Both the position numbers and the translations under genes were made by a program. A stretch of DNA of 64,000 nucleotides from an uncultured Candidatus Saccharibacteria bacterium (GTDB taxonomy: Bacteria > Patescibacteriota > Minisyncoccia > UBA6257 > 02-FULL-45-10c), in NCBI GenBank assembly GCA_964355085.1, contig CAYHBW010000001.1, forward strand, positions 4,693 to 68,692, in the 5' to 3' direction. The notes beneath the pieces were generated by a model. That model was not told the origin of the DNA and searched no databases. It was given only the letters and a program-made list of their open reading frames with translations. This document shows positions 11,499 through 34,381 of this stretch, piece by piece. How positions within the stretch are numbered: position 1 is the stretch's first letter; each line of letters opens with the position of its first letter.

Positions 11499-11525
11499 AA
11501 AAATCCCCGTATACCGGGGATTTTT
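11499..11525. terminator. bidirectional rho-independent terminator between convergent genes
   Basis: aaaaatccccg tatac cggggattttt forms an 11-bp perfect stem. It is flanked by an A-run and a T-run, lying between wzx (+) and the PGBD protein gene (-). Confidence 0.65.
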
Positions 11526-11534
11526 ATTTCCTTG

Positions 11535-13270: not shown

Positions 13271-15499
13271 TTATCTTTCTCCTGCGCGGATTTGATCTAA
13301 TAATGCTCCCCCTTCATCTCTGAATTCGGGGAATTTTTCAACGGCGGATTCCAGAACGATTATCGCGCTGCGGTCGTCGCCGGCCAAAAGATGCGCTCCG
13401 ATCAGACTTTTGTAATTTTGCAGATTTTCCGGATCTCCTTGGACAAATGCCTCCCAGATACCTACCAGTCTCCCGTAATTCTTGACTTGGGAATAAACCT
13501 GAACCAGTATCTGACGGGGTAAATTCAACGTTCCGAATCCATCGGTCAGAAGCTTGTCCGCCACATCCTGCCTGCCGGTCATTATATAGGCGGCGGCGAG
13601 ATTCAATCTGGCTTGATCGAATTCAGGATCAAGCTCAAAAGCCCTGATAAGTACGTCGATTGCATTTGAGGCATCTCCTCTCTGGAGATAAATATCGGCG
13701 ATTTCAAAATAAATCTGCTGCTTTTTAGGAGAAAGACTGCTGGCTTTTTCAAGCATCTCTAGGGCGGGCTCGGAAAATCCGACGCGGCTGTACAATCCCG
13801 CAAGGAATAAATGAGCGCGCGGATCAAGCGGATTCTCTTCGACGCCTCTTTCCGATTCCTGAATCGTAAAACGAAGAACTTTATCTTTGAATTCAATCGG
13901 AAGATTCGATGATCCGACATTCATGGCAAAGCGGGTGAGCTGCTCCCGTATTTCCTGCTTGCCGATCGAATCATAAGAAATGGCCTCTTGAAAATATCCG
14001 AATGAATCCTCTGCTTGACCTTGCGCCTGCGCTTTCAATGCGCTCAAAAGATTAAGATTTATCATGAGCGGCCGCCAATTCAAAAAATAAAATACCCAGC
14101 AAAAAACCGTCAGAAGTAATGCGCCGTACGCATACGTCGACCTGGAATCAACCCCGTAAATCCGGCTCTCTTTCCCGGAAGAAACGGCGGGACTTAAATC
14201 AGCGGACTCGGAATTTATGAATGCCAGAAATGAGAAAAAGGAGAGATATGTGGCGACATTGTCAAAAACAAAAAGATTCTGAAGAAAATAAGCGACAAAT
14301 AAAGCTCCGATCAGCAATCCCTCTTCCAAGAGATGTTTCCGCCTGCGAAAATTTTCTAGAAGCATATAAAACGCCGCGACAAAAATACCCAGATAAGAAA
14401 TAATTCCCAATAGCCCGGCATTTATGAGCCAATCAAAAATTATATTATGAGAACGATCGAACCATGGCTCCTGCTTCCATAATTCTGGTCGGAAATATTT
14501 TGAAAAGACTATGGCGTAATTTTCCGGCCCCCAACCAAGAATAGGGTGGTCTTTGACCCCTTCAAAACTCATCTTCCAGATGCTGAAACGGGATGTGACT
14601 GTTCTTTCTGAAAATGAAAGGGAGGTCAACCGCGCCAAAGCATCACTTTTTTTAATGAATGAACTGTCGCGTATCAGCCAAAGAAAAGCCGGGACAACTA
14701 TTAGAAATCCCAAACCGATACCTATGTGCTTCAGGATTATTTTTTCCGAATCCTTGACCGGTTTTTTCAAAAACAAATACGATATCGCAGCCGATATCGA
14801 TCCGACGAGAAGACCGAGAACAGGACCGCGGCTGGCCGTAAAAAATATTGAAAGGAATGTCCACGCAATCATAAAAACATAAAAATACGACTGCGGAGAG
14901 TTCTTTTCCGACTTAAGCCATAGGAGCGCGGCAATAGCCAGAAGGAAAATCAAATAGGCCGCCAGATAAGTCGGGTTCCCGATAGTCCCGTCAGTCCGGA
15001 ATCCCCCTTGAGGGGAGGCTAGATATCCGAGTTTTTGAAAGAGAACATAAAAATTCTCGAATATTCCGGAAACCATGAACAGATTGAAAAATACATTCCA
15101 ATCGCTTTTCCTGAATACCGAAGACAGGACGACGAAATATGCGAAAAGATGGAGATAGGCGATCAACCCCTCCATTCTCTCGAAATTAGACCAGAAGCTT
15201 CTTTCCGGATTGACTGAAAAAATCGTCGCGAGACTTACGACTATGATCCAAAAAAACAGCGCATAAAAAAGCGCGGATTTCCTTGGACGATACTCCTCGC
15301 ATGTTACAGCTAGCCATATCCAGACGAAAAAACAGACCTCGATCAAAGCCCGGAACACAAAAGCTTTGCCGGTTATATACGGAAAGAACAGGGATTGGGA
15401 AACATAAAGCGGGATAAATGGCACGGCCAATAGACAGACCCTTGCCAAAGATAAAATCGCTTTTTTTATTTCGGAATTCATGACAAACAAATCATACAC
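13271..15499 (-). CDS. O-antigen ligase/Wzy-like (Wzy_C) polytopic membrane protein fused to C-terminal TPR repeats
   Basis: 742 aa. About 12 TM helices with a large periplasmic loop, typical of WaaL/Wzy. The C-terminal roughly 250 aa has TPR-like repeats (LAGLYSRVGFSEPALEMLEKA..., YFEIADIYLQRGDASNAIDVLIRAFELDPEF). Confidence 0.65.
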   Translation of the reverse strand: MYDLFVMNSEIKKAILSLARVCLLAVPFIPLYVSQSLFFPYITGKAFVFRALIEVCFFVWIWLAVTCEEYRPRKSALFYALFFWIIVVSLATIFSVNPERSFWSNFERMEGLIAYLHLFAYFVVLSSVFRKSDWNVFFNLFMVSGIFENFYVLFQKLGYLASPQGGFRTDGTIGNPTYLAAYLIFLLAIAALLWLKSEKNSPQSYFYVFMIAWTFLSIFFTASRGPVLGLLVGSISAAISYLFLKKPVKDSEKIILKHIGIGLGFLIVVPAFLWLIRDSSFIKKSDALARLTSLSFSERTVTSRFSIWKMSFEGVKDHPILGWGPENYAIVFSKYFRPELWKQEPWFDRSHNIIFDWLINAGLLGIISYLGIFVAAFYMLLENFRRRKHLLEEGLLIGALFVAYFLQNLFVFDNVATYLSFFSFLAFINSESADLSPAVSSGKESRIYGVDSRSTYAYGALLLTVFCWVFYFLNWRPLMINLNLLSALKAQAQGQAEDSFGYFQEAISYDSIGKQEIREQLTRFAMNVGSSNLPIEFKDKVLRFTIQESERGVEENPLDPRAHLFLAGLYSRVGFSEPALEMLEKASSLSPKKQQIYFEIADIYLQRGDASNAIDVLIRAFELDPEFDQARLNLAAAYIMTGRQDVADKLLTDGFGTLNLPRQILVQVYSQVKNYGRLVGIWEAFVQGDPENLQNYKSLIGAHLLAGDDRSAIIVLESAVEKFPEFRDEGGALLDQIRAGER

Positions 15500-15524
15500 T
15501 GAACCCGGAGAATTTGAAATGGTC

Positions 15525-17324
15525 TTATTTTTTCAGATGATAAGTCTTATGGAAATAGGAATTTGTATCTTTAATCAGATCGGCCGGATTACCTGACTCG
15601 ATTACCCGCCCACCCTCCAAAACGAATATGGTATCCGCGTCCAAAACAGTGGACAGACGGTGCGCTATGATTATTATGGTCATCTTGCCACGCAGTCCGC
15701 TAATCGATTTTTGAATCAAAAGCTCGGACTCATTATCCAGAGCGCTCGTCGCCTCATCCAATATGAGAATCGAAGGATTCCTCGCCAAAATTCTTGCCAA
15801 AATTATTCTCTGTCTCTGCCCGCCTGAAAGCATTACGCCCCTATCCCCCACAACCGTCTTCATGCCATCCTTCTGCCTTTCTATGAATTCAGATGCGTTC
15901 GCGAGTTTTGCGGCATTCTCTATATCTTCGTCGGAAATATTCTCGCCATAAAAACGGATGTTGTTTTCTATCGTATCATTCACAAGAAAAACTTCCTGGG
16001 ATACGTATCCGATGTTCTTCCGCCAATCTTGCAAAGCGATATCGTTTATGTCGACTCCATCAACCAGAATCTCGCCTTTTCCAGGATTCAAAAATTTCAA
16101 AAGAAGGTCCGCGATCGAGGACTTTCCAGCTCCGGACGGACCGATCAATCCCACGACCTGTCCTTTTTTGATTTTGATATCCACCCCAGCCAAAACACGG
16201 CTTCCTTCATCGTAGGAAAAATCGATATTTTTAAGATGAAGTGAATCTTGGAATTCAAAGGGCGATGATCCGCCTGGATTCTCCTGGTTATTTTCCAATT
16301 CCGATCTGAAGGACAGGATATTTTTCAGGAATGGAATCTGTTCGTTCACTGAATGGAATGCGGCCTGCGATCCCTCAAGATAGGTGAAAATTTTCTGGAT
16401 GAAATATACCGTCACAATAAATGCAGGCAAATTGAAATTCGGCGATTTGTATTGGTAATAAAAAAGGACGGAGATGAATATCATGGCCATTGGCTGCATA
16501 AAATTGGACAATAGAGAACGGAAAACCACGATTTTCATGTGCAGATTCTTCATGCGGTTATACAATCCCCCCCCTTTTTCCGTAGCGGCATTCTCGACGG
16601 TCAGAGATTTTATATATTTCGCCCCGGAAATATTTTCAATCAAATAACCGGAAATCAGCTTTTCCACGGCGATCATTTTTTCAAAGATATCGCGGTTCTT
16701 CCTGATAAAAGGGAATAGCAAGAGGACGCCCGCTCCTCCGACGAGCAGGGTCAATAGCGTCACCTCGGGAGAAATATTGATTGCAAAAAATAAATAGATC
16801 AGCAGTCCGGTGCCTGAAATTATAAATCGGCTCAAATAGACGATTGAATCCGAAGTGGTCTGCATATCCCGCAAAATGGTGGCTTGGACATATCCGAGCT
16901 TCTGCTTCAATAAAAACGTCCATTTGGCTCCGAAAACCAACTTAAGCAGATCCTTGACCGACTGATTCTTGTAGTCGATCATCGTCAAATAAGAGATATA
17001 GGAAAAAATAACAAAAATGAAGGCGCGGAGGAAAAATAAGCAGATGGCCAGACCGAGAAGAAAAATGAGGTCGTGTTCGAAAGGAAGATAATCCACATAT
17101 TTCAAAATCGTCCTTGAAATGAAATCTTCGGCTGGCATCGCATTTTTAGTGAAAAAAGAAAATACCGGGATAAGGACATTTATTCCGATACTATCGAGAA
17201 GCCCGCCTAAAAATCCCAGAAATGCGAGAAAAACTAGCTTCCCCCTGAAACCACGGAATGATTCGTTCAAAATCCGGAAAACTTCTGAAAGTTTCAAAAA
17301 ATTCTTGATGAATTGCATGTTCAA
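15525..17324 (-). CDS. ABC exporter, fused permease plus ATPase (MsbA/type-I exporter family)
   Basis: 599 aa: six N-terminal TM helices then an NBD with Walker A GPSGAGKSS, signature LSGGQRQRIILARIL and Walker B ILILDEATSALD. Confidence 0.85.
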   Translation of the reverse strand: MNMQFIKNFLKLSEVFRILNESFRGFRGKLVFLAFLGFLGGLLDSIGINVLIPVFSFFTKNAMPAEDFISRTILKYVDYLPFEHDLIFLLGLAICLFFLRAFIFVIFSYISYLTMIDYKNQSVKDLLKLVFGAKWTFLLKQKLGYVQATILRDMQTTSDSIVYLSRFIISGTGLLIYLFFAINISPEVTLLTLLVGGAGVLLLFPFIRKNRDIFEKMIAVEKLISGYLIENISGAKYIKSLTVENAATEKGGGLYNRMKNLHMKIVVFRSLLSNFMQPMAMIFISVLFYYQYKSPNFNLPAFIVTVYFIQKIFTYLEGSQAAFHSVNEQIPFLKNILSFRSELENNQENPGGSSPFEFQDSLHLKNIDFSYDEGSRVLAGVDIKIKKGQVVGLIGPSGAGKSSIADLLLKFLNPGKGEILVDGVDINDIALQDWRKNIGYVSQEVFLVNDTIENNIRFYGENISDEDIENAAKLANASEFIERQKDGMKTVVGDRGVMLSGGQRQRIILARILARNPSILILDEATSALDNESELLIQKSISGLRGKMTIIIIAHRLSTVLDADTIFVLEGGRVIESGNPADLIKDTNSYFHKTYHLKK

Positions 17325-18418
17325 TTTTTTTCGGATTTCATATGATTTTCAACGTATTTTTCAGTCAGATGATCTCTTCTCTTTTTCATATATTCCGCAT
17401 CATAAAATTTCTCCCCCCTGAAAAGGGGCTTTATCCTGCCGCCGAATCCGGATTTGAAAAATGAAATGCTTATCTCTTTGGGCGTCCTGACCTCGTCGGA
17501 AATGATCGGATAAAAATTACAGCCAAGCTCATACTGCCTGAAATTATTAGACTTGAGATACTTGATTATCCCCCATTGCAAAAAATGACTGATTCCATTC
17601 ATTTCCTTGAAATCGGCTGCGGTGGCTCCGAACGCATAATATGCAGATTGCTTATAGACGAAGAAAATCACTCCGCTGGCGAATTTTCCGGAGCTGTCTT
17701 TTTCGAGCGCCAAAACAGCGGCGCCGGCCTTGATAAGTCCGTATGTCGCATCCCAGCGTTCCCTGGTTCCGACTTCTTTCCCCGCCGCGGAAAAATAAAT
17801 ATCTTTATAGATCTTGAATATCCGATCGCTGATATTATTCTTATCGAAAAAATCGATGGACAGACCCGTTTTACCTGCCGATCGTATATCATACTGATAC
17901 CCGTCGCGAATATTTTTGAAAAGTTGCTCTTCCGGCAATGACAGATCAACAATATTGGTTGTCAACGAAACATCGCCGAATCCGGATTTTAATAATTGAT
18001 TGAATTTACCAGGACCATATTCGGAGTCATCGGCCAACGGATCGGAAAAAAATTTCGCATACATGACGGATTTTTCCCTGGCAAGAGCATCTATCCTTTC
18101 AAAGGCCGACTTCAACAATTTTGCGGACTTTGACTCGGACAGATCGCTCCGCAATGCCGGGAATGGCACCGGGTCTCCGCCCATCGCAAATTCAAAAATA
18201 TCGCCCTCTCCGGAAATAGGTTGCTTGATCAGCGGGACAGCCGCCGCCAGCTTCCCGGCTTCAATTATTCCAAAAGAAAGATTCTCGCTTGCATTATTTA
18301 AGCTCAAGCAAAAACGCATCGCATCACTTGAGTGCCTGAACCAAGCCGAACTGGAGTTCAAGCAAAAATCATCCCACTGCTTAAGATCTAATTTTCCAAA
18401 CGGAACAAAATCAGCCAT
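17321..18418 (-). CDS. hypothetical protein, possibly a FemAB/Acetyltransf_6-like GNAT-fold acyl/aminoacyl transferase
   Basis: 365 aa with no strong motif. Size, predicted mixed alpha/beta fold and the polysaccharide-locus context suggest a FemAB-family (BioF2-like) enzyme. Weak assignment. Confidence 0.3.
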   Translation of the reverse strand: MADFVPFGKLDLKQWDDFCLNSSSAWFRHSSDAMRFCLSLNNASENLSFGIIEAGKLAAAVPLIKQPISGEGDIFEFAMGGDPVPFPALRSDLSESKSAKLLKSAFERIDALAREKSVMYAKFFSDPLADDSEYGPGKFNQLLKSGFGDVSLTTNIVDLSLPEEQLFKNIRDGYQYDIRSAGKTGLSIDFFDKNNISDRIFKIYKDIYFSAAGKEVGTRERWDATYGLIKAGAAVLALEKDSSGKFASGVIFFVYKQSAYYAFGATAADFKEMNGISHFLQWGIIKYLKSNNFRQYELGCNFYPIISDEVRTPKEISISFFKSGFGGRIKPLFRGEKFYDAEYMKKRRDHLTEKYVENHMKSEKN

Positions 18419-19110
18419 TATTTTTTCTTTTTAAGCAAAATGGCTTCAACTGCCTCGAAATCTTCCGGATAGTCAACATCAATGTTCTCATCTTTTTCCA
18501 TTACCAGGACATCTGCCTTGTCAGCGCCCATTTGTCTTTTAAGAGTCGTGATTTTCGTAAGGCAGATTGCCCCGTTCTCTTTCACGAGCGGCTCCTGAAA
18601 CTGGCTGTTTCTTTCAGTCGTTGGATAAAATCTCACCCAACCGCCGATCGCTTCTTTCCAGTAATGGCCTTTGTCGTAAATACCGCTGAAAACAGTGTCG
18701 GAATCCCGATCAAGCGCGAGATCGATCGCCTGTTCAATCCTCTCCGCTTTCAAAAGCGGAGAAGTCGTATAAACGAGTAGCACATAATCCGGAACATATC
18801 CCTGTTTTTCCAGCTCTCCGAGGGCGTGCTTAACCACCGCATAAGTCGTCACTTCGTCTGATGTCAAATCAGCCGGTCTTTTAAATGGGACATCGGCGCC
18901 GTATTTTCTGGCGATCTTCGCAACCTTGTCGGATTCCGTAGAAACCACGATCCGATCCAAACGCCCCACTCCTTTCAGCGTCTCCAAAATGTAAGCCATC
19001 ATCGGCTTGCCGGCCAGATCCCGGGTGTTTTTATTCGGAACCCGCTTGGAATGTTCCTTTATCGGAACAAGGGCTAATATCTTTTTTCCCGGTTTTTTAT
19101 TATTTTTCAT
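18418..19110 (-). CDS. acylneuraminate / nonulosonate cytidylyltransferase (CMP-sugar synthetase, CTP_transf_3 family; NeuA/PseF/LegF-like)
   Basis: The N-terminus ILALVPIKEHSKRVPNKNTRDLAGKPMMAYILETL matches the cytidylyltransferase P-loop-like motif (IPAR.GSKG.P.KN...L.GKPLI.Y). 230 aa. Confidence 0.7.
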   Translation of the reverse strand: MKNNKKPGKKILALVPIKEHSKRVPNKNTRDLAGKPMMAYILETLKGVGRLDRIVVSTESDKVAKIARKYGADVPFKRPADLTSDEVTTYAVVKHALGELEKQGYVPDYVLLVYTTSPLLKAERIEQAIDLALDRDSDTVFSGIYDKGHYWKEAIGGWVRFYPTTERNSQFQEPLVKENGAICLTKITTLKRQMGADKADVLVMEKDENIDVDYPEDFEAVEAILLKKKK

Positions 19111-20122
19111 ATTTATATTTTTTAATCATATCGATGATATTTCCAGTGGCATGAGGCACTGTCATATCGAAGGATTTCCTTGATTCTGGAAATATTCCGC
19201 TGGAATATTTTTTAAATAGGTCCCGAAGCTCGCTTTCCCCGGTTGCCAGCTGACCGAGACCGAATTCTCCAACCACTGAAAAGTCTTTTGATTTCAAATT
19301 CGGCTGATAGCTTATCACCCGCTTCCCGGCGATAGCCGCCTGGAAAAGCACCACGGAAGTCATCCCTATGACGAGACCGGCTCTTGAAAGCAATTCCTCG
19401 ATTGAGGTCTCATCATCCACTCGAATTCCGGAATCAACATACCTGTCAAATTTTTCAGATTTTTCACTTGGATGCGGTCTAATTATAACCTTGAAATCAG
19501 AGGGAAAGTTACCCGACTTAAGCACTCTTAAAATTCCTTCAATTACCGTAAATTCGTCGTATCCGGATTTTTCTTTTACGCTTACCGGCGTAGATATGAA
19601 CAAGATCAGGGTAGGGTCGCCTTTCTTGATTTTGCGGAAGTGATCGAAGTGCGGATTGCCGGTAATTTTTATGATTTTCGGATCAAATCCCTCCGCCACC
19701 ATCTCTTTTTTCGCCTTTTGATCCATGACGCAGATCATATCCGGCAGATACCGGAAATCCTTCTTTTCGGAAGAAAATCTTTGCCAATAATTCGCCCAAT
19801 AATCTAAAATATAGATAGTTTTTGCCCCATTTTTTTTAAGAGTATCCAATATTTTTTTATCAAAAGTAAGGCCGGCGCTTGTTCCGCCTATGAAGAAATC
19901 CGGGTTGAAATCATAAATCAGATCCTTCAGATCACGAAATGATAACAAGTCCGCATTTATGAATTTTATTTTCTTTTTTTTGAAAATCTCCTTGGACGGG
20001 CCTCCGATCAGTAATAACGCGGAAAATTTCTTATCCCTGGAAACCCTCTCCGCAACCGGAAAAACGGCGTTTCCGCCGCCAATATCAAAAGCGCTGAACA
20101 ATATTTTTTTCTTGTCCGTCAT
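19100..20122 (-). CDS. GT-B-fold protein, possibly PseG-like UDP-sugar hydrolase or TagF-like transferase
   Basis: 340 aa. N-terminal Rossmann-like ILFSAFDIGGGN and C-terminal RPHP...VIGMTSVVLFQAAIAGKRVISY resemble MurG/PseG/TagF C-domains. The position next to the CMP-sugar synthetase and an aminotransferase fits PseG. Confidence 0.35.
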   Translation of the reverse strand: MTDKKKILFSAFDIGGGNAVFPVAERVSRDKKFSALLLIGGPSKEIFKKKKIKFINADLLSFRDLKDLIYDFNPDFFIGGTSAGLTFDKKILDTLKKNGAKTIYILDYWANYWQRFSSEKKDFRYLPDMICVMDQKAKKEMVAEGFDPKIIKITGNPHFDHFRKIKKGDPTLILFISTPVSVKEKSGYDEFTVIEGILRVLKSGNFPSDFKVIIRPHPSEKSEKFDRYVDSGIRVDDETSIEELLSRAGLVIGMTSVVLFQAAIAGKRVISYQPNLKSKDFSVVGEFGLGQLATGESELRDLFKKYSSGIFPESRKSFDMTVPHATGNIIDMIKKYKYEK

Positions 20123-20126
20123 TTTC

Positions 20127-21407
20127 TTATTTTACCAGCTCCGCCTTATTCGCCAAAACCTTCCTGACGGCTGTCACGAACAGATCAATTTCCTTTTTCG
20201 TCCTGGGATATTGGCAGACGGAATTCACCGTGACTTCTTTTTCGTACATCCGCTCGACGACCGGACAAATCCCCTTGGAATAATCGGCCTTCCCGGAATA
20301 ATGGCTTCCCTCAAACGGAAATTTAGTGTTATTGAACGCCTTTTTATCCTGAAATACCTTCAATAAATAGATTGGCTTCACATAACCGGCTGACATTCCG
20401 AATCCTTCCGCTGCCATGGCTTTCACGAACATATCCCTGGAAATTCCCAGCTTCTTCTCGTTTATCTTTATCGGATGGCCGTAATAGACGTGAAAATAAT
20501 CTTTTCCGACATAGGGCAATTCCAAGCCGTCTATGCCGGAAAGTTTTTTGTTGAGATGCTTTACTAATTCAATTCTTTTCCTGTTTAAAAAATCGAGTTT
20601 TTTCAATTGTCCATAAGCTATCGCCGCCTCGATTTCCGTCATACGATAATTGCTTCCGATTATCGGTCCGAGAGAATAATCCGGATCCTGATCCGCATAA
20701 ACCTCGCCATGATTCCTGCACATCTGCGCCCGTAATGCGTAATCCGGATTATTGGTAACCAAAACACCTCCTTCTCCGGATTGAATCACTTTATGGACGT
20801 TAAAGCTGAATATGCCGATATCGCCGATGGTTCCGGCAAATCTCCCCTTATATTTCGCGCCCGGTCCCTGGGCGTTATCTTCTATGATTTTTAAATCGTG
20901 TTCTTTGGCGATTTTCAATAACTCATCGAAATCCGAAGGGCCGCCGAAAATATTCACCGCCATTATCGCCTTGGTCCGCGGAGTCACGCATTTTCTTACG
21001 GAAACAGGGTCGATGCAGAAAGTTTTTTCATCTATGTCAGCAAAAACCGGAACTGCGCCGTTCATCAGAATCGCAGTCGCAGAAGCCGCCATCGTATAAG
21101 GAGATACGATGACCTCATCGCCTGGCCCTATGCCTAAAGCCACGATCGAAGCATGCAGAGCGGTGGTGGCGGAATTGAAAGAAACCGCGTATTTAACTCC
21201 GAATTTTTTACAGAATGACAATTCCAATCTCTTGACGTGCCTGCCTCCCAAAAAATACTTACCTTTGACACCGACAAAGTCCGAAAGCGGGCCTTTTTTC
21301 AGAAGCTTATTTACTGCGGAAATTTCTTCCTTCCCTATGTTATAAACCGGGGGCAGAGGATTTTTCAAAACCGGCTTCCCGCCGTTTATGGCCAGTATTT
21401 TTTTCAT
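20127..21407 (-). CDS. DegT/DnrJ/EryC1/StrS-family PLP-dependent sugar aminotransferase
   Basis: 426 aa. Contains GDEVIVSPYTMAASATAIL and FSFNVHKVIQSGEGGVLV, with a lysine in the expected PLP-binding position. Confidence 0.8.
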   Translation of the reverse strand: MKKILAINGGKPVLKNPLPPVYNIGKEEISAVNKLLKKGPLSDFVGVKGKYFLGGRHVKRLELSFCKKFGVKYAVSFNSATTALHASIVALGIGPGDEVIVSPYTMAASATAILMNGAVPVFADIDEKTFCIDPVSVRKCVTPRTKAIMAVNIFGGPSDFDELLKIAKEHDLKIIEDNAQGPGAKYKGRFAGTIGDIGIFSFNVHKVIQSGEGGVLVTNNPDYALRAQMCRNHGEVYADQDPDYSLGPIIGSNYRMTEIEAAIAYGQLKKLDFLNRKRIELVKHLNKKLSGIDGLELPYVGKDYFHVYYGHPIKINEKKLGISRDMFVKAMAAEGFGMSAGYVKPIYLLKVFQDKKAFNNTKFPFEGSHYSGKADYSKGICPVVERMYEKEVTVNSVCQYPRTKKEIDLFVTAVRKVLANKAELVK

Positions 21408-22750: not shown

Positions 22751-22752
22751 TT

Positions 22753-23754: not shown

Positions 23755-23761
23755 TGATAAA

Positions 23762-26397: not shown

Positions 26398-27079
26398 CTG
26401 ATAATGGCCAACGATTTATTGCATAGGCCGGATCAAAATCAATGACGCCGCCGGATACGGCCGCAGAACCGCCTTCGGAAAGCCATAAAATAAAGCTGGC
26501 GACGTCTTCCGGATGAATCAACCTCCCGGATGGGATTTTATCCCTAACAGAATCAAGTAATTGCGGGCTGGTTTTCGTGGTTTTCATAAGTCCGCGCAAA
26601 TGACCGAGCCGGATGGCATTTGCAGAAATTCCATACCGCCCCCACTCAACCGCCAATTCCCGCGTCAAACCCTCCAATCCGGCCTTGGATGCCGCATAAA
26701 GCGCGCGTTTCGGATACGGATGAGTTGCCATTATTGAAGAAATAACCACGAACGTCGACCGGCCCGCCGCCTTCATTCCGGGAAATGCCGCTTTGGCAAA
26801 TAAAAAAGCCCCTTTCAAATTAACGCCTAAAACTTCATCCCACTCTTTTTCCGAAACCGCTTCCGTATTTTTTATCAGATTGATTCCGGCGAGATAGACC
26901 GCAAGATCTATTTTTTTCGGCAAAGATCCGTATGACTCCGCCCGCGTCGCATCCGGATGATCCGCCCCCAACCAAATCGGATCGATCTCGTAACCGTTTT
27001 TGGATAATATTTTACAGACGGCTCGGCCGAGATTCCCGGTCGCGCCTATCACCACTGCTGTTTTTTTATGTTTTTTCAT
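26384..27079 (-). CDS. SDR-family short-chain dehydrogenase/reductase
   Basis: TAVVIGATGNLGRAV (TGxxxGxG) and YAASKAGLEGL (YxxxK). The track ORF extends to 27367 across the upstream gene, but the ATG at 27079 (MKKHKKTAVVIGATG) is the plausible start. Confidence 0.75.
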   Translation of the reverse strand: MKKHKKTAVVIGATGNLGRAVCKILSKNGYEIDPIWLGADHPDATRAESYGSLPKKIDLAVYLAGINLIKNTEAVSEKEWDEVLGVNLKGAFLFAKAAFPGMKAAGRSTFVVISSIMATHPYPKRALYAASKAGLEGLTRELAVEWGRYGISANAIRLGHLRGLMKTTKTSPQLLDSVRDKIPSGRLIHPEDVASFILWLSEGGSAAVSGGVIDFDPAYAINRWPLSDEKA

Positions 27080-27092
27080 GCTTTTCTTAAAT

Positions 27093-27836
27093 TTATTCCA
27101 ACCACTTGAAATCAGGGTCCGTATTCCATATATACACGCGCTCATTCCCAGCCAGCATCCACAGATAATACAACTCATGGCCGGGCGGATTGGCAACCGG
27201 ATGATATCCGCTCGGAATGAAAACACAATCCTTATCTTTGACGGCATAACATTGATCCGTCTTGCGGTCAGCTGAATATATCCGCTGGATGCCGAATCCC
27301 TTTTCCGGCCTGATTCTGAAAAAATAAATCTCCTCCAAAGGGACTTCCTTGCCGGGAACATATTCATCGTGCTTATGTGGCGGGAAAGATGACCAATTCC
27401 CCGGCAGATTGATTGTTTCGCCGACAGCTATCCGTTGCGTTTTTGTTTCAATATTCAGGATGTTGGAAACCTTCCTTTTATATCCCTCTTTTCCGCGCCA
27501 TTCTTCCTTCACATCAGCCGCCGGCACAAAAACCGGAACATTGTCCTCGTCCGCCCTGGCTTTGCAGACCGCCACCATGGTCGGAAGCGAAGCAGTAATG
27601 GAAACCGGACATTTCGGCGGAATATAAACAGCTGACGGAGGAGAGTCGAATACATTTTTTCGTTTCATTTCCACGGTTCCGATCCCGGACGCATCCAGGG
27701 AACAGCCGCCTTCTATGATCACAAAAACCGCCTCAAATTCATCGGAGATCCATGTCTTCTTTCCGCCGGCTTCCAGCTCCAGAAGTTCGAAGTCCAGAAT
27801 CGCCATCCGATTTTTTGTAAGCTCGTTTATTTTCAT
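27093..27836 (-). CDS. cupin-fold sugar isomerase, KduI/IolB-like (5-deoxy-glucuronate isomerase family)
   Basis: 247 aa. Double-cupin-like with a HKHDE...YYLWM block. Family assignment is tentative. Confidence 0.4.
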   Translation of the reverse strand: MKINELTKNRMAILDFELLELEAGGKKTWISDEFEAVFVIIEGGCSLDASGIGTVEMKRKNVFDSPPSAVYIPPKCPVSITASLPTMVAVCKARADEDNVPVFVPAADVKEEWRGKEGYKRKVSNILNIETKTQRIAVGETINLPGNWSSFPPHKHDEYVPGKEVPLEEIYFFRIRPEKGFGIQRIYSADRKTDQCYAVKDKDCVFIPSGYHPVANPPGHELYYLWMLAGNERVYIWNTDPDFKWLE

Positions 27837-27851
27837 TCCATTTATATTTAA

Positions 27852-28679
27852 TTATGCGGATTTTTTCGCCCAAACGACTATGCTATCGCCAATTCCAGTT
27901 TTTTTAGCCAAAAAATCAAGCGCTGACTTTATTCTCGGAGAAATGCCGCCGCTGGTATTTCCGCTTCCGAATCTCACCCAGCTGACAACATGAAAACCGG
28001 AACGCCTCAAGGCGTAAAATAATGATTTCCGACTGAAAAGATAGATATGTTGAGGCGGATTATAGTGCCGCCATTTCGGACCGAAATAGTCGGATATGAA
28101 TCCGCGACATGGAGTTTCAATTACCAAATTGCCGTCTTTTTCAAGCAGCTGATTGACTTTTTTAAGCGCGGCGGCGGGATTGGTGAAATGTTCCAACACA
28201 TCCCATAAGGTTATCATGTTGAATTTACCTTCCAATGAAAATAAATCCTCCGAGCTGGCGTCCAGCCCTTTTTCCCTGGCTCGCGCGACCATTTCAGCGG
28301 ACACATCAACGCCCTTGGCGCTGATTCCGCGGCTTTTCAGATATTCCAAAAAAATTCCCGTGGCACAGCCGATATCCAATGCCTTTTTAATCCCGGCTGG
28401 ACTGAACCCGAGATCAGAAAAATCAAGGTCAAAGGTGTTGAAGCAATCTTCTTTTGACTCCTCCCTGGTTTTGATGTAAATTCCGCCTTCGGACTCGTAT
28501 TTTCCATAAAAATCCCGCAAAAAATCCTGGCTGGGAACCGGATTCAAAATGCTCGTTCCGCATCCGGAACATACGGCATATTCATAGCCGTTTTTTCCGA
28601 TATCGAATCTGAATTTGCGCGAACCGCAAATCCCGCACCCGGCGGTAAAATCTGATGTATTCTTTTTAAATCTGAACAT
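27852..28679 (-). CDS. class I SAM-dependent methyltransferase with N-terminal C4 zinc ribbon
   Basis: CGICGSRKF...CSGCG zinc ribbon, then LDIGCATGIFLEYLKSRG (motif I) and ITLWDVLEH (motif II-like). Confidence 0.75.
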   Translation of the reverse strand: MFRFKKNTSDFTAGCGICGSRKFRFDIGKNGYEYAVCSGCGTSILNPVPSQDFLRDFYGKYESEGGIYIKTREESKEDCFNTFDLDFSDLGFSPAGIKKALDIGCATGIFLEYLKSRGISAKGVDVSAEMVARAREKGLDASSEDLFSLEGKFNMITLWDVLEHFTNPAAALKKVNQLLEKDGNLVIETPCRGFISDYFGPKWRHYNPPQHIYLFSRKSLFYALRRSGFHVVSWVRFGSGNTSGGISPRIKSALDFLAKKTGIGDSIVVWAKKSA

Positions 28680-28690
28680 AATTTCTCTGT

Positions 28691-29890
28691 CTAAAGATAA
28701 TCGCGTTTTACGAGATTTTCATATGCGTCAGCCAAAGATTCCTCCCGGCTGAAGCCCAATCCGGCTTTGGGAAACTTCCTGCCGATGCAATTCTTGGCGT
28801 TCTTTTTTATTGAAGTCAATATGGAGGCAAAAAGATTTGGGTTGCCATACGCGAAATATCTGTTCCATGCCTCAATCGTCAATGACTCTCCCAGCGCCAT
28901 ACTGATCATCCCGCCGACAAAATCTCCAGATCGCGCCGGCGTAGTATGGGAACTGTCCCAGCCGCCGGACAAACGAGGCGTGAGTTCCAAGATATACGGA
29001 CCGGTTTCAGTGAGCATGACATCCGCCTTCAGAATATGCCCTCCTTTTTGTTTATGCATGCCAATCGCTTTTCCTGAACGGTAGATCATTTCAGCCACTT
29101 CTTTTTTCAAACCGACGTCATGGATCGCCGGATTGATATGGCCTATCTCCACTCCCCAGCCGATTCCATGATACAGTTTCTTGCCGATTGCCCTCATATT
29201 TTTGAACTTTCCGAGATCTTTCCGGAATAAACGGTCGACCCAATTAAGCCAGTACATTTTCCCGTCATACCAAAGCGTCTCGACTGATTGTTCCGCTATT
29301 TCGCCATCAACCGGAATCAGGAGTTGTTCAACGATCGCCTGTCCAGTAGTTCCGTTCGCGAGAGCTTCTTCCAGCAATTCTTCCGTCGCCTCGCTTAACT
29401 TACTGATTGCGGCAAATCCCCGGCTTCCGGAATTATTGGTCGCCTTCAAAGCGACCGGCAATCCAATTTCCCTGATAGCCCGCTTCAATTCTTCAAGCGT
29501 CCGGACTGTCCGGAATTCCGGCTGTGGGATACCGGCGCGCGACAGGACTTTGCGGGTTTCCATCTTATACCGGCAGATTTTGGAAATCTTCGGATCAATG
29601 CCGGGCAAACCGAGACGCTTCGCCACGACAGCAACGGTTTCGTGGCAATCAACCGCAATACCCAGGACGCCTTTTATGTCATACTTTTTATTCAGCGCAT
29701 CAGCTGCCTTAAGATTTCCAGGAATATCAAAAGTATTCAAAGGCACGAATTCATCCGCGATGGCGGCGCAAACACACTCCGGATCCATATCGGTGATTAT
29801 CAACCTGAAACCGCGGATTTTTATTTTTTCAGCTGCGAGTTTCTGCATCGGTCCGCCGCCGAAAAGCCACATCGCTTTTTTCTTTTTCAT
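28691..29890 (-). CDS. ATP-grasp domain ligase
   Basis: 399 aa with a pre-ATP-grasp Rossmann-like N-terminus and a central ATP-grasp core (LPVALKATNNSGSRGF ... E..L.P). Stand-alone carboxylate-amine ligase-like. Confidence 0.65.
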   Translation of the reverse strand: MKKKKAMWLFGGGPMQKLAAEKIKIRGFRLIITDMDPECVCAAIADEFVPLNTFDIPGNLKAADALNKKYDIKGVLGIAVDCHETVAVVAKRLGLPGIDPKISKICRYKMETRKVLSRAGIPQPEFRTVRTLEELKRAIREIGLPVALKATNNSGSRGFAAISKLSEATEELLEEALANGTTGQAIVEQLLIPVDGEIAEQSVETLWYDGKMYWLNWVDRLFRKDLGKFKNMRAIGKKLYHGIGWGVEIGHINPAIHDVGLKKEVAEMIYRSGKAIGMHKQKGGHILKADVMLTETGPYILELTPRLSGGWDSSHTTPARSGDFVGGMISMALGESLTIEAWNRYFAYGNPNLFASILTSIKKNAKNCIGRKFPKAGLGFSREESLADAYENLVKRDYL

Positions 29891-29898
29891 GATAGTTT

Positions 29899-30795
29899 TT
29901 ATTTATTTTTTTTCGCGATAATGATAAATTCCCTGCCGATTCCCTTTCCGCCGAAAGACCGGTAAATTCCGTTAAGAAGTTCGGGGTCGCCATTATACAT
30001 ATTAAGTTCAAAATCTTTCCTCCGCAACTGGCATTGTCGGCCGACTTCCGGATTGCCGACATAGTTCAAGCCGGAAAAAAGGAAAAATTCCATAGGAAAA
30101 TTTCCGAGCAGATCCACGACTTCCAGACCGAGCCGTTCAAGCAGCTTGCTCACGGAAGCGGAATCGAAATAATTGAGGTGCTGGGGAGGCGAAACCCACC
30201 AAGGATCAAAATTCATTTTTTCCCTCAAAATATTCTGAAGCGGGTTATAATCATTCGGAGAAATGATGCAGATCAATCCACCTGGAGCAAGAGCGTCTTT
30301 TGCCTCCAGTAAGAGTTTTTCCGGATCCGGAAGATGTTCAATGACCGTTTTCATATAAATCGCATCGAATTTCCCGTATTTTCCCGCGGCTTTGGCGGAA
30401 AAGAAATCATTGACCACTTCCACGCCCAATTTCCGCGAATATTCCGAGGCATCCTTGGACGGTTCAAAGCCGAGCACATCCCATCCGAGATCCTTGCCGC
30501 ATTTCAAAAAATATCCCGGCCCTGAACCGATATCCAGCAATTTCCTACCGTCGGTATGCTTTGCAAGAAGACTGAAGTGATTGCGGTAAGTCGCCATCCA
30601 CCATTCCAGATCTTCTTCATAATCGGAAAAATATTTCGGCTTCACATGCGAATAAAACTCCTTGCCATAAAAATCTTCCAGCTCTTTGTCGGAAGGAATC
30701 GGGGTTACATGCCGGAATCCGCAAGATTCGCATTCAATGACTTCATAACCGTTTTTTCTGTCCAAAATCTTTCCTTTGTGAGATTTATCATTCAT
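29899..30795 (-). CDS. class I SAM-dependent methyltransferase with N-terminal zinc ribbon
   Basis: CESCGF...TP ribbon, LLDIGSGPGYFLKCGKDLG motif I and IYMKTVIEHLPDP. Confidence 0.75.
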   Translation of the reverse strand: MNDKSHKGKILDRKNGYEVIECESCGFRHVTPIPSDKELEDFYGKEFYSHVKPKYFSDYEEDLEWWMATYRNHFSLLAKHTDGRKLLDIGSGPGYFLKCGKDLGWDVLGFEPSKDASEYSRKLGVEVVNDFFSAKAAGKYGKFDAIYMKTVIEHLPDPEKLLLEAKDALAPGGLICIISPNDYNPLQNILREKMNFDPWWVSPPQHLNYFDSASVSKLLERLGLEVVDLLGNFPMEFFLFSGLNYVGNPEVGRQCQLRRKDFELNMYNGDPELLNGIYRSFGGKGIGREFIIIAKKNK

Positions 30796-30865
30796 GAATT
30801 TATATGTTCATATATAACCACAAAACAGCCTTATTTGTCTCTTGATATGACTCATCCGAAAATTA

Positions 30866-30894
30866 AAAACACCTTGACCGGATCAAAGTGTTTT
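30866..30894 (-). promoter_or_regulatory. intra-operon hairpin downstream of the neuB-family gene (possible attenuator or partial terminator)
   Basis: aaaacaccttga ccgga tcaaagtgtttt is a 12-bp stem with one C.A mismatch. It lies in the only sizeable gap (110 nt) of the long minus-strand operon. Confidence 0.3.
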
Positions 30895-30905
30895 GAAAAC
30901 TATAT

Positions 30906-32042
30906 TTACTCTCCCATGAGATCTTCCCAAACAATCGGGCTTCTGGCCTTAATCTTGTTTTTGACTTTTTTCCCGATAATCAATTCCGCATGACCAGTAT
31001 CAATACCGCCGGACGGCCGCAGCGAAATCAGCATATCTTCCGTCAACACGGCGCCCTTTGAAATATCCCTTGAGGCATATAGCGACCGCCTGACCCAGCG
31101 ATCAAAAATTTCGTCTCCTTCATGACCAGGATAGGAAACCGGCTGTTTGATCCCGGAACCGGACAACGCCTCTTCCGTCATCCGAATTTCTGCGACCATA
31201 CGCTTGAAATCCGCCGGCTCCGTTGAATTCGGATCATCGTGGCTTCCGCCGGCCTGCGAATCGGTAAAATGCTTTTCAATCGCGACAGCACCCAAAGCAA
31301 CGGCTGCCAACGGAGCCGCAAGATGCGGCGGCTTGGAATGATCCGAATAACCGACCGGCAGATGGAATGCATTGCGGAGAGTTTCGATTGCGCGCAGGTT
31401 CAAGTCAGAAAAACTGCGCGGTGGATACATGGATACGCAATGGAGCAAAACAATATCGTCATTGCCTTCCTGCTGTATAACCCGGACCGCATGCGCGACT
31501 TCTTCCAAATAAGCCATGCCGGTGGAAAGAATGATGGGCTTCCCCTGCTTTGCGATATACCGAAGCAATAAGTCATCGGTCATTTCATATGAAGCGATCT
31601 TAAAAGCCGGAACTTTCGATTTCATCAGGACATCCACCGCCTCTTTGTCAAAAGGAGTAGAAAGGAACATGATGCCCTTCTTTTTCGCATATTCAACCAA
31701 TCGTCCCGTCCATTCGTAAGGCAGTTCGGATGACCCGTAAAATTCGGAAAGAGTTTTCCAGCTTTTCTTTCCATTCCAGGAAATATCTATAGGGGTATCA
31801 GCGGCGATTTTATCGTGCTTGAGATGCTGGAATTTCACAGCGTCTGCGCCGGATTCCGCCGCAATATCAATAAACCGGAGCGCGTTTTTCAGATCGCCTT
31901 TATGATTCGCGCCGACTTCAGCGATGATAAAAACCGGCTGGCCTGCGCCGATTGTTTTATTCCCTATCCTTACCGAATTTACCGGCTGATATGTTAGATT
32001 TTCAGGCAATTTTTTGAAATAACCGTCTCTTTCTTTCCCCAT
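30906..32042 (-). CDS. neuB: N-acetylneuraminate-synthase-family nonulosonic acid synthase (NeuB/PseI/LegI) with C-terminal SAF domain
   Basis: IGNKTIGAGQPVFIIAEVGANHKGDLKNALRFIDIAAESGADAVKFQ is the canonical NeuB N-terminus. A C-terminal antifreeze-like/SAF domain is present. Confidence 0.85.
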   Translation of the reverse strand: MGKERDGYFKKLPENLTYQPVNSVRIGNKTIGAGQPVFIIAEVGANHKGDLKNALRFIDIAAESGADAVKFQHLKHDKIAADTPIDISWNGKKSWKTLSEFYGSSELPYEWTGRLVEYAKKKGIMFLSTPFDKEAVDVLMKSKVPAFKIASYEMTDDLLLRYIAKQGKPIILSTGMAYLEEVAHAVRVIQQEGNDDIVLLHCVSMYPPRSFSDLNLRAIETLRNAFHLPVGYSDHSKPPHLAAPLAAVALGAVAIEKHFTDSQAGGSHDDPNSTEPADFKRMVAEIRMTEEALSGSGIKQPVSYPGHEGDEIFDRWVRRSLYASRDISKGAVLTEDMLISLRPSGGIDTGHAELIIGKKVKNKIKARSPIVWEDLMGE

Positions 32043-32055
32043 AATTTAAATTTAT

Positions 32056-33192
32056 TTAACTGATCAAAATATTTTTAATTTCCTTTATGACGGTTTCCTG
32101 GTCCGATCCGCTCAACCCGGGATAGATAGGAATTGAAATCTCTGAAAGATAGAAATCTTCGGCGACCGGACAGATTCCTTTTTTATATCCCAGCTCCTGA
32201 TAATACGGATGCCAGTAGACGGGAATATAGTGAACTTGGACGCCTACTCCGGCTTTTTGTAATTTTTCAAAAACTTCACGGCGGCGCGACTGTAACTTCC
32301 CTGAAAGCCTGATCGGGTAAAGATGGCGGCTGGACTTCCTTCCTTCAAAATCCGCCGGCAAGACCAGATCCGGAAATCCGGAAAGTTCCTCGGAATAACG
32401 CTTTGCTAATTCATTTCTTGATTTTATGAATGTCGGAAGTTTCTTGAGCTGACTTATTCCGAGAGCCGCCTGCATGTCAGTCATCCGATAATTCAATCCA
32501 AGCTCCTGCATCTCGTGATACCACGGACCATGCGGATCGTTCTTAAAATCATTGGCGTCCTTTGTTATTCCGTGACTCCGGAATAACAGCAATTTTTTAT
32601 AAAAATTTTCGTTGTCAGTGAGAATCGCGCCGCCTTCGCCGGTGGTTATCGATTTCACCGGGTGGAAGCTAAAAGTCGTCATATCAGCGATGCTTCCGAC
32701 TTTCTTTCCGCCATATTCGGCACCGAGCGAATGTGCGGCGTCCTCGATCAGAATCAGATTATGTTTTTTTGCAATTGATTTTAAAATATCCAAATCACAT
32801 GGCAAGCCGGAATAATCGACAGCTACGATGGCTTTTGTCTTGCCAGTTATCTTTTCCTCGATCAAATGAGCGTCGATATTGCCCGTAGACCTCTCAACAT
32901 CGACGAAAACAGGCGTCGCCCCCTGCCAAATAGCCGCATTTGAAGTCGCAGCGAATGTGATCGGTGAAGTGATGATCTCATCTCCAGGACCGATTCCGGC
33001 GGCAAAATAGGCGGCCTGCAAAGCGGCTGTGCCGTTTGAAATGACGACGGCATATTTCGCTCCGCAATAATCAGCCAGCGCAGATTCGAATTCTTTTATT
33101 TTCGGGCCTTGGGTCATCCAATCAGACTCCAAAACCTCACGGACTGACCTCAAATCCTCCCCGTCAATTGATTGATGCGAATAAGGGATCAT
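32056..33192 (-). CDS. DegT-family aminotransferase, PseC/LegC-like (UDP-4-keto-6-deoxy-hexosamine transaminase)
   Basis: The MIPYSHQSIDGEDLRSVREVLESDWMTQGPKIKEFE...AVVISNGTAALQAA N-terminus is typical of PseC-type enzymes. The track ORF also shows FSFHPVKSITTGEGGAIL. Confidence 0.8.
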   Translation of the reverse strand: MIPYSHQSIDGEDLRSVREVLESDWMTQGPKIKEFESALADYCGAKYAVVISNGTAALQAAYFAAGIGPGDEIITSPITFAATSNAAIWQGATPVFVDVERSTGNIDAHLIEEKITGKTKAIVAVDYSGLPCDLDILKSIAKKHNLILIEDAAHSLGAEYGGKKVGSIADMTTFSFHPVKSITTGEGGAILTDNENFYKKLLLFRSHGITKDANDFKNDPHGPWYHEMQELGLNYRMTDMQAALGISQLKKLPTFIKSRNELAKRYSEELSGFPDLVLPADFEGRKSSRHLYPIRLSGKLQSRRREVFEKLQKAGVGVQVHYIPVYWHPYYQELGYKKGICPVAEDFYLSEISIPIYPGLSGSDQETVIKEIKNILIS

Positions 33193-33207
33193 CGTTTATT
33201 CCGGCCT

Positions 33208-34188
33208 TCAGCCGAGGATTTCTTTGGCTTTCCGCGGATTATTCAGAAAATCCCGGTGATTGCTGGCGTATTGGAATTGCTTTTTGACTGACGGCTTTTT
33301 ATTCAGCCAGCGCACGCTTCCGGATTCAGGATGGATGGCGAAAGCGCTCCCGATATCCTTGGCCCGGCGCGCTTCATGCTCGGTTATCAGCACTTCATGT
33401 AATTTTTCTCCCGGACGGATTCCGATGACTTCGACATCGCATTCCGGAGCCAGATATTTTATGACATCCGTAACTTTCAGGCTTTTCATCTTCGGCACGA
33501 AAAGCTCTCCGCCCTCCATGACGCCGACGGCGTCCAGAATTATATCCAGAACTTTATCTATGGAAATCCAGAAACGGGTCATCTCCTTGTCCGTCAACTT
33601 GATCACGCCTGTTTTTTTCTGATTATGAATAAGTTCGATCAGACTTCCGCGGCTTCCGATGACATTTCCATAACGCACGACGCTGAACTTGGTGCGTAAA
33701 TTATTTCCGACATATACATTGCCGGAAATAAACAATCTTTCCGCCGCAAGCTTGGTGGCGCCGTAAAGGTTTATCGGTTGAACCGCTTTGTCGGAAGAAA
33801 TAAGCATCACCTTGTCTATGTTCTTGTTCAAAGCCGCCTCAACGACATTCTGACTCCCTAAAATGTTCGTTTTGACAGCTTCCATCGGATTGAATTCAAT
33901 CGCCGGAACCTGCTTCAACGCCGCCGCATGGACGACGATATCCACTCCATCAAACGCCCTCTCCAAACGGGGCAAATCCCGGACATCGCCGATGAAAAAC
34001 CTCAATCGATCCTTATGATCGGCCAGATCTCTTTGCATTTCATACTGCTTGAATTCATCCCGGCTGAAAATTATGATTTTTTTGACCGCGCTTTCGCTTA
34101 AAAGTTTGGCAACAAAAGCCCGGCCGAAAGTCCCGGTGCCGCCGGTGACCAGAACCGTCTTGCCCTTGAGATAATTTAAGTTCGACAT
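33208..34188 (-). CDS. pseB: UDP-N-acetylglucosamine 4,6-dehydratase (inverting), PseB/FlaA1 family
   Basis: Aligns by eye nearly end-to-end with H. pylori FlaA1/PseB. Shared blocks: TVLVTGGTGTFG, KKIIIFSRDEFKQYEM, RFFIGDVRD, HAAALKQVP, KTNILGSQNV, INLYGATKL, FSVVRYGNVIGSRGS, MTRFWI, GGELFVPK, IGIRPGEKLHEV. Confidence 0.9.
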   Translation of the reverse strand: MSNLNYLKGKTVLVTGGTGTFGRAFVAKLLSESAVKKIIIFSRDEFKQYEMQRDLADHKDRLRFFIGDVRDLPRLERAFDGVDIVVHAAALKQVPAIEFNPMEAVKTNILGSQNVVEAALNKNIDKVMLISSDKAVQPINLYGATKLAAERLFISGNVYVGNNLRTKFSVVRYGNVIGSRGSLIELIHNQKKTGVIKLTDKEMTRFWISIDKVLDIILDAVGVMEGGELFVPKMKSLKVTDVIKYLAPECDVEVIGIRPGEKLHEVLITEHEARRAKDIGSAFAIHPESGSVRWLNKKPSVKKQFQYASNHRDFLNNPRKAKEILG

Positions 34189-34381
34189 AATGCTATTAAA
34201 ACTATCATATACCCTAAAGGGTTTCCAGATGTGTATTGAAAGACAGATATGAGATGCGGACTTGCATTCTAAATTCCACCGGATATTCTGCCGGATGACA
34301 AAATCAAGATTTCAAAAAATTGACGATAAAATTTTTGGCTTTAAATCTATCTTAATTTAAGATATTATTATACATGACACC

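Follow-up and report, generated by a model that had tools for sequence, protein, structure and literature searches.

O-antigen loci and Bacteroides capsule loci are unidirectional clusters of glycan genes. Here we analyze a cluster of this kind on the minus strand of a 64,000-nucleotide (nt) stretch of DNA from an uncultured Candidatus Saccharibacteria bacterium (assembly GCA_964355085.1, contig CAYHBW010000001.1, positions 4,693 to 68,692; hereafter the window). A sequence-only reading had described the run from pseB (position 34188) down to an O-antigen-ligase-like gene (13271) as one operon with an extreme degree of translational coupling. We find an ordinary unidirectional surface-glycan gene cluster in an under-studied lineage, packed no more tightly than the rest of the window and probably, though far from surely, transcribed as several units. 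The cps loci of Streptococcus pneumoniae are likewise unidirectional, span 10–30 kb (mean 20.7 kb), and combine conserved flanks with serotype-specific content and AT-richer acquired genes (PMC1391919). The window resembles them in having ~21–23 kb on one strand, gene content that varies between the few relatives compared, an inserted gene with low GC content at third codon positions (GC3), and, for the one flank compared, a conserved series consisting of a Wzy_C gene fused to tetratricopeptide repeats (Wzy_C-TPR), Wzx, Bac_transf, DsbA, TrxR and a lamin-tail domain (LTD) protein. Unlike the cps loci, it belongs to a member of the Patescibacteria, its anchor is the Wzy_C-TPR fusion rather than cpsABCD, and an ATP-binding cassette (ABC) half-transporter and Wzx are both present.

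Further known systems resemble the run in their enzymes. The sfmABCDE genes of Shewanella oneidensis (NeuB, thiamine pyrophosphate (TPP) enzyme, short-chain dehydrogenase (SDR), methyltransferase and ATP-grasp) are needed for flagellin modification and adjoin pseB/pseC-type genes, without clear PseH, PseG, PseI or PseF orthologues (PMC3765264). By family composition the window holds this whole set, with NeuB, the methyltransferase MT1, ATP-grasp and SDR in the run and the TPP gene on the opposite strand (34420–36228, +). It differs in adding a GH57-like enzyme, an IolB-like enzyme, a DUF218 protein and a second methyltransferase (MT2). Among the open reading frames (ORFs) of the window that were scanned, none matched a Maf-type transferase; flagellar genes were not specifically searched for in that scan, and the acceptor is probably different from the flagellin of the sfmABCDE system. 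The Campylobacter/Helicobacter pathway for pseudaminic acid (Pse; PseB, PseC, PseH, PseG, PseI, PseF) is matched by PseB and PseC proteins that pass the NCBIfam equivalog cutoffs and by NeuB-family and CTP_transf_3 proteins, which carry the family-level domains but fall below the PseI and PseF cutoffs. Where PseG and PseH would be expected, the window instead has ATP-grasp, FemAB-like and RPHP-motif GT-B proteins; neither PseG nor PseH gave an NCBIfam match at E ≤ 1e-5 among the 20 minus-strand genes from 11535 to 34188, and the same tool readily found PseG-like genes in other loci.

The Tannerella forsythia transferases Tanf_01245 and BFO_1060 are ~445 aa long, show TagB/GT-B homology and a sialyltransferase HP motif, and are encoded beside genes for CMP-activated pseudaminic or legionaminic acid (PMC5420450). 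Judged by sequence, the two GT-B proteins of the run, U448 (448 aa) and U340, appear similar in kind: both carry RPHP motifs, both are TagF-like, and their genes flank the PseF-like gene. They differ in that the U448 family has not kept the D/E-D/E-G motif, and U340 gives a weak, partial match to the BFO_1060 model (32 bits, cutoff 200). Like the PglK or Wzk flippases and the WaaL or PglL enzymes, the ABC half-transporter (fused ABC_membrane and ABC_tran domains) and the Wzy_C protein form a pair, their genes being adjacent in the window and in two comparison loci (L002 and L088). Unlike those systems, the transporter misses all equivalog cutoffs (PglK 213 against 1000 bits, MsbA 298.7 against 602, HepA 329.7 against 725) and the C-terminal part of the Wzy_C protein is a TPR domain of ~200 residues. 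Paceibacteria are not expected to have a lipid A-core.

The ORF listing gives 18 credible minus-strand genes in an unbroken row from 34188 down to 13271 (Table 1), not the 21 reported earlier, and every credible gene there is on the minus strand, as had been claimed. The first nine encode PseB, PseC, a NeuB-family synthase, MT1, ATP-grasp, MT2, a KduI/IolB isomerase, SDR and the GH57-like enzyme; the DUF218 protein, a GFO/IDH/MocA oxidoreductase, U448, a DegT aminotransferase, U340, the PseF-like and FemAB-like enzymes, the ABC half-transporter and Wzy_C-TPR follow. Pfam gave no match to any of the six largest ORFs on the plus strand of this region, and hidden plus-strand genes were rejected. 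With corrected starts for SDR (ATG 27079), the ABC gene (ATG 17318) and Wzy_C-TPR (ATG 15481), the 17 junctions measure 15, 13, 110, 8, 11, 15, 13, −14, −4, 7, 2, −4, 4, −11, −1, 2 and 43 nt: five overlaps, ten gaps of 2–15 nt, one of 43 nt and one of 110 nt, so that 15 of 17 are at most 15 nt when overlaps are included. A 327-aa ORF at 26384–27367, with an apparent 275-nt overlap with the isomerase gene, was discarded as a longest-ORF artefact, its SDR domain beginning at about residue 100; the ATG at 27079 leaves a 13-nt gap. TTG starts at 17324 and 23787 were also dropped in favor of better supported ATG codons.

Most of the overlaps listed by the sequence-only reading are there: TAATG at 18418, 11 nt at 19100–19110, 14 nt at 26384–26397, and ATGA at 21404–21407 and 24397–24400. 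The one given at 17321–17324 exists if the TTG start is used and becomes a 2-nt gap with ATG 17318. The 110-nt gap after neuB (30796–30905) with a hairpin inside it was described correctly, but it is not the only spacing above 30 nt, since the Wzy_C-TPR start that matches homologues (ATG 15481) lies 43 nt beyond the ABC gene. Nor does the run stop at 13271, where a 111-nt gap is followed by two further minus-strand genes (12446–13159 and 11535–12425).

This tight packing is the norm of the genome and the locus, not an extreme, because the spacing equals that of the rest of the window and is equally tight in related clusters of other phyla. The other same-strand junctions of the window (n = 25) are spaced like the 17 of the cluster (Mann-Whitney p = 0.98), with overlaps at 9/25 against 5/17 and spacings of at most 15 nt at 16/25 against 15/17 (Fisher p = 0.15); neighboring gene groups show, for example, −4, 4 and 4 nt, and −8, −4, −4, −35 and 9 nt. 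Across 80 loci of other phyla that hold the same core module (L004–L083), the median gap is 0 nt from ATP-grasp to GH57 and −4 nt from SDR to ATP-grasp. The whole window has a negative GC skew, and 38 of its 53 genes lie on the minus strand, a strand bias that also favors long runs. Translational coupling cannot here work through Shine-Dalgarno (SD) sites inside upstream genes: an SD core precedes only 3 of the 53 genes. Across the window, A+T makes up 76% of the 20 nt upstream of start codons (55% overall), and −10-like hexamers lie 10–15 nt from several start codons; these features suggest very short leaders and SD-independent initiation.

A candidate boundary within the run is the gap after neuB. 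On the coding strand, 11 nt past the neuB stop codon, we found the stem AAAACACTTTGATC-CGG-TCAAGGTGTTTT followed by TAATTTT, that is, a 13-bp stem and a T-tract. At the same place L002, the closest relative, has AAAAACACCCCGACC-TAAG-TCGGGGTGTTTTT, a 14-bp G-C-rich stem with TTTTT (centroid energy −23 kcal/mol, z −4.4, matched by 0 of 200 shuffles). The outer stem is identical in the two loci; in the inner stem, from window to L002, two U-A pairs become C-G by changes on both sides and one G-U becomes G-C. Beyond the hairpin, AGAGACAAA in the window and CGAGACAAA in L002 are followed in both by GGTTATATA, ~15 nt before the MT1 start. Both loci thus have a stem-loop and U-tract past the stop codon, the sequence form of an intrinsic terminator, next to a −10-like element; in the window, termination may be partial. 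A dispersed repeat or miniature inverted-repeat transposable element was rejected, the hairpin being single-copy in the window, and so was a riboswitch or other known RNA (no Rfam match and no tRNA in the gaps).

The gap with its hairpin is a lineage-specific acquisition rather than a relic, because relatives at 56–68% NeuB identity have an ATGA overlap at the neuB–MT1 junction (L088, 68%; L089, 56%). In a further locus (L003, 65% identical), an 84-nt neuB–MT1 gap (2896–2979) is filled by a 24-bp hairpin (z −8.4). This L003 hairpin reaches the start codon and has a structure unlike the terminator-like hairpin of the window and L002.

Relatives also divide the run elsewhere. In L003 a divergent EamA gene precedes neuB, which begins a unit of its own and lacks pseBC upstream. 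The Wzy_C-TPR gene (a Wzy_C domain in a polytopic membrane protein) is 45–73% identical across many Patescibacteria (Tagabacteria, Harrisonbacteria, Paceibacterota, Minisyncoccota) and keeps changing company. Where it is 70% identical (L084), its immediate neighbor is on the opposite strand and the genes upstream form a different nonulosonate cluster; L086 has yet another nonulosonate cluster before it; and in L087 a divergent Wzx gene adjoins it. From these opposed neighbors in L084 and L087, and from clusters that differ among L084, L086 and L087, the Wzy_C-TPR gene apparently can be transcribed on its own. The flank on its far side, compared in these few genomes, is retained between L084 and the window in the order Wzx, Bac_transf, DsbA, TrxR, further genes and the LTD protein (Wzy_C-TPR 69%, Wzx 71% and Bac_transf 82% identical).

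In L002, whose orthologues are 63–89% identical, 19 genes or more point the same way; the window counterparts of three of them are separated from the run by an inserted pair of plus-strand genes. Neither L002 nor L003 has MT2 or U448, and the GC3 of U448 is 0.38, where its neighbors are at ~0.5; U448 is probably a recent insertion, and the run as a whole is a mosaic. Its modules are pseB–pseC; the NeuB, methyltransferase, ATP-grasp, SDR and GH57-like genes; the 3-amino-sugar genes; the two GT-B genes; the ABC flippase; and Wzy_C-TPR. The inserted pair, the TPP enzyme and an epimerase (34420–37180, +), interrupts what is one directon in L002, and in other phyla the TPP enzyme belongs to the NeuB/ATP-grasp/GH57 module. 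The glycan island extends past the run on both sides, starting at 8.6 kb with Bac_transf and Wzx (8655–11455, +) and continuing beyond the TPP enzyme and epimerase with a GT4-methyltransferase fusion, a deacetylase, GT2, DegT and Capsule_synth-like genes.

We consider it rather probable that the run is served by three or four transcription units with read-through and is not one obligatory polycistron. The region is a surface-glycan biosynthesis locus whose modules came together in one orientation by chance; its neighboring genes would mostly be co-transcribed, and their translation linked by stop/start overlaps or 2–15-nt gaps. The first unit would be pseB–pseC–neuB, read from a promoter in the 231-nt divergent region and ended or attenuated at the hairpin (30894–30866). 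The second, MT1 through the ABC transporter (14 genes), would be fed by the promoter-like element just past the hairpin and by read-through. Wzy_C-TPR would form the third from its own −10-like TATGAT, with the two surface-protein genes or followed by them, and would end at the 16-bp bidirectional terminator (11494–11530), which faces the convergent Wzx gene. The whole would be a supra-operon of long co-transcribed blocks, broken up by a partly efficient terminator and a re-initiation element after neuB and by a probable separate start of Wzy_C-TPR, with its definitive end at 11494–11530. A terminator in the 111-nt gap after Wzy_C-TPR was rejected, as folding there does not beat shuffled sequence (z −0.17). 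Co-transcription of long stretches is very likely because spacing is operon-like at 15 of 17 junctions, and to that extent the proposal of a single polycistronic unit stands. What tells against it is the neuB hairpin, conserved with compensatory changes and followed by a −10-like element, and the proposal is further weakened by the L003 neuB behind a divergent gene and by Wzy_C-TPR behind opposite-strand genes in L084 and L087.

Several observations weigh against placing boundaries within the run. The window stem is A-U rich, just 3 of its pairs being G-C, and shuffled sequences fold as well as the entire gap does (z −1.2); the hairpin may be weak enough that most polymerases pass and the transcript is effectively one. 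Promoter-like matches are barely above shuffles (27 against 17.7 ± 4.1; 23 against 20.2 ± 3.9), and weak terminator-like matches in the region occur at shuffle frequency. The −10-like hexamers sit in leaders so rich in A+T that matches come easily; for that reason the TATGAT hexamers 15 nt upstream of the pseB ATG and 10 nt before the Wzy_C-TPR ATG are weak evidence. In L002, pseB lies only 31 nt behind upstream same-strand genes, and unit boundaries therefore shift between relatives.

These points lend some weight to the main alternative, that one promoter upstream of pseB yields a single ~21–23-kb mRNA in which the hairpin acts as a stabilizer, a processing site or a weak attenuator tuning stoichiometry. 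It would also account for the short junctions, for the lack of any other strong terminator or hairpin of similar strength between 34188 and 11530 (the terminator at 11494–11530 aside), and for L002 keeping all the orthologues, and three upstream genes, in one orientation. We nevertheless think it unlikely: the hairpin and U-tract are conserved with compensatory changes, are much stronger in L002 and precede a conserved −10-like element, and in relatives the genes from neuB onwards and Wzy_C-TPR function as separate units. That co-orientation and tight spacing mainly reflect streamlining and leading-strand bias in a small candidate phyla radiation (CPR) genome, with many promoters inside upstream coding sequence, is quite improbable: the skewed strand, the like spacing of unrelated neighboring gene groups and the SD-less genes with −10-like hexamers in AT-rich leaders would fit, but overlapping stop and start codons leave no space for separate untranslated leaders, the same gene pairs are adjacent and overlapping across phyla as is typical of real operons, and promoter-like matches are not clearly enriched over shuffles.

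Table 1. Genes and sequence elements of the run, from the divergent region upstream of pseB to the probable 3′ end (window coordinates).
Feature	Position	Strand	Basis or remark
Divergent intergenic region, 231 nt, with promoter-like elements for pseB (−) and TPP-enzyme gene (+)	34189..34419		Consensus matches only
pseB, UDP-GlcNAc 4,6-dehydratase (inverting), first gene	33208..34188	−	TIGR03589 409.5 bits, cutoff 407.75; Pfam Polysacc_synt_2
pseC aminotransferase	32056..33192	−	TIGR03588 502.7 bits, cutoff 423.5
NeuB-family nonulosonate synthase (PseI-like)	30906..32042	−	Pfam NeuB and SAF; PseI 313.6 bits, below cutoff 340.25
Intrinsic-terminator-like hairpin, 13-bp stem, 3-nt loop, then TTTTTAATTTT	30866..30894	−
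GGTTATATA, −10-like, 15 nt upstream of MT1 ATG, candidate internal promoter	30811..30819	−	Conserved with L002; putative
S-adenosylmethionine (SAM) methyltransferase MT1	29899..30795	−	Methyltransf_23; adjoins NeuB in many phyla
ATP-grasp carboxylate-amine ligase	28691..29890	−	Pfam ATP-grasp families; analogue of Shewanella SfmE
Second SAM methyltransferase MT2	27852..28679	−	Not in L002 or L003
KduI/IolB-type cupin isomerase	27093..27836	−	PF04962 5e-72; TIGR04378 227.8 bits, cutoff 205
Short-chain dehydrogenase SDR	26384..27079	−	Start ATG 27079
GH57-like 666-aa enzyme, hallmark of widespread module	24397..26397	−	PF03065
DUF218 protein	23762..24400	−	Pfam
GFO/IDH/MocA oxidoreductase, sugar 3-dehydrogenase-like	22753..23754	−
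U448, GT-B enzyme with HP motif, small uncharacterized family	21404..22750	−	Insertion relative to L002 and L003; low GC3
Second DegT-family aminotransferase	20127..21407	−
U340, GT-B protein with RPHP motif	19100..20122	−	Weak TIGR04396 and BFO_1060 matches
CMP-nonulosonate synthetase (PseF-like)	18418..19110	−	CTP_transf_3; PseF 123.9 bits, below cutoff 205.7
FemAB/Acetyltransf_6-like acyl or aminoacyl transferase	17321..18418	−
ABC half-transporter (MsbA/PglK/HepA-like), probable lipid-linked glycan flippase	15525..17318	−
Wzy_C and TPR membrane protein, conserved anchor gene in Paceibacteria	13271..15481	−	PF04932 75.7 bits, cutoff 31.7
Signal-anchored Gly/Ser/Thr-rich protein, candidate glycoprotein acceptor	12446..13159	−	33% homologue after Wzy_C-TPR in L086
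Secreted protein, Ser/Ala/Pro-rich linker and PG_binding_1 domain, last directon gene	11535..12425	−
16-bp bidirectional terminator hairpin between convergent Wzx and PG-binding genes, probable true 3′ end	11494..11530

The functional content proposed earlier is broadly right, since nonulosonic-acid synthesis, modification enzymes, an ABC exporter and a ligase-like Wzy_C gene are all present. The transferases it also named are the exception: no classical glycosyltransferase is encoded in the 21 kb, only the two divergent GT-B proteins with an HP motif. From the families present we infer a pathway in which PseB and PseC would make a UDP-4-amino-6-deoxy-hexosamine and the ATP-grasp, methyltransferase, SDR, IolB-like, GH57-like and FemAB-like enzymes would supply and attach non-acetyl substituents. 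NeuB would condense the sugar with phosphoenolpyruvate and the PseF-like enzyme would form the CMP-sugar. The GFO and DegT proteins resemble the 3-dehydrogenase/aminotransferase pairs that make 3-amino sugars, and by analogy, drawing on family knowledge, we take them to provide a second sugar of that type. The two HP-motif GT-B enzymes would hydrolyze or transfer nucleotide sugars. The glycan would grow on a polyprenol carrier begun by the nearby Bac_transf, be flipped by the ABC transporter or Wzx, and be passed by Wzy_C-TPR to a cell-surface acceptor. With canonical PseG and PseH missing, the product may not be a pseudaminic-acid stereoisomer, which counts against too literal a reading of the pathway.

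The central module of the run is not confined to this lineage. The NeuB, methyltransferase, SDR, ATP-grasp and GH57-like set, to which TPP and IolB are sometimes joined, turns up in over 580 species from archaea and many bacterial phyla, and in NeuB/PseC clusters the GH57-like gene almost always stands directly after the ATP-grasp gene. The catalytic Glu and Asp of the GH57 structure 1k1w align with E124 and D224, which are invariant in the GH57-like family. We rejected the GH57-like enzyme as a substitute for PseG: loci of Methanothrix (L026) and Dehalococcoidia (L034) carry both. Some members of the family are fused to an AAC(3)-type N-acetyltransferase.

U448 and U340 are homologous to each other (hhalign probability 98.3%). 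The U448 family is small (287 representative clusters); TagB/TagF-type glycerophosphotransferases are matched by many of its members, and polysialyltransferase or Capsule_synth models by a few. U340 has sub-threshold polysialyltransferase and TagF matches, and searches of the PDB with both sequences returned nothing significant. U340 could be either an analogue of the PseG hydrolase or a nonulosonate transferase.

As an operon the run changes nothing: glycan clusters that are long, one-directional and overlapping are standard, and all genes of this genome are packed alike. Its value in that respect is low; it is moderate for following up the surface glycans of CPR bacteria and the ATP-grasp/GH57-like module, a very widespread module of uncharacterized chemistry. 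As a catalogue entry the locus has some value, since it shows an ultra-small groundwater bacterium with a full pathway for a nonulosonic-acid glycan: a full-text literature search yielded nothing of substance on pseudaminic or other nonulosonic acids in Patescibacteria, the sole co-mention of "pseudaminic" and "Patescibacteria" being unrelated. A protein identical to the PseC of the window is encoded on a contig from Hainich groundwater (0.1-µm filter fraction); taken with the taxa in which homologues occur, it indicates a Paceibacteria-like CPR bacterium. The locus also points to Wzy_C-TPR as the conserved anchor of a variable surface-glycan locus in Paceibacteria.

A bolder and tentative proposal, one we would not expect to hold in full, is that Paceibacteria possess a hypervariable, serotype-like glycan locus in which Wzy_C-TPR acts as a protein O-oligosaccharyltransferase on adjacent Ser/Ala/Pro-rich proteins, the glycan here ending in a heavily modified, non-acetyl and methylated pseudaminic-type sugar from the pan-prokaryotic ATP-grasp/GH57-like module. 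The pointers to this acceptor, the TPR domain and the Ser/Ala/Pro-rich secreted neighbors, are circumstantial, and a role of the two downstream low-complexity surface proteins as glycosylation acceptors is speculation. Equally speculatively, such surface glycans could matter for the attachment of episymbionts to their hosts and for phage evasion.

Two observations concern the surroundings of the locus. At 531–5273 (−) the window encodes a 1580-aa lamin-tail-domain protein, which is probably a giant protein of the cell surface; it is kept beside the locus in L084, and L086 has a larger LTD protein. Downstream of Wzy_C-TPR in L087 (10215–19815), a block encoding a 372-aa protein, a Sigma70_r4/HARE-HTH protein, a 43-aa protein and a DUF8128 protein occurs twice in inverted orientation on either side of a DUF87/TrwB-type ATPase gene, and resembles a mobile element bearing long inverted repeats.

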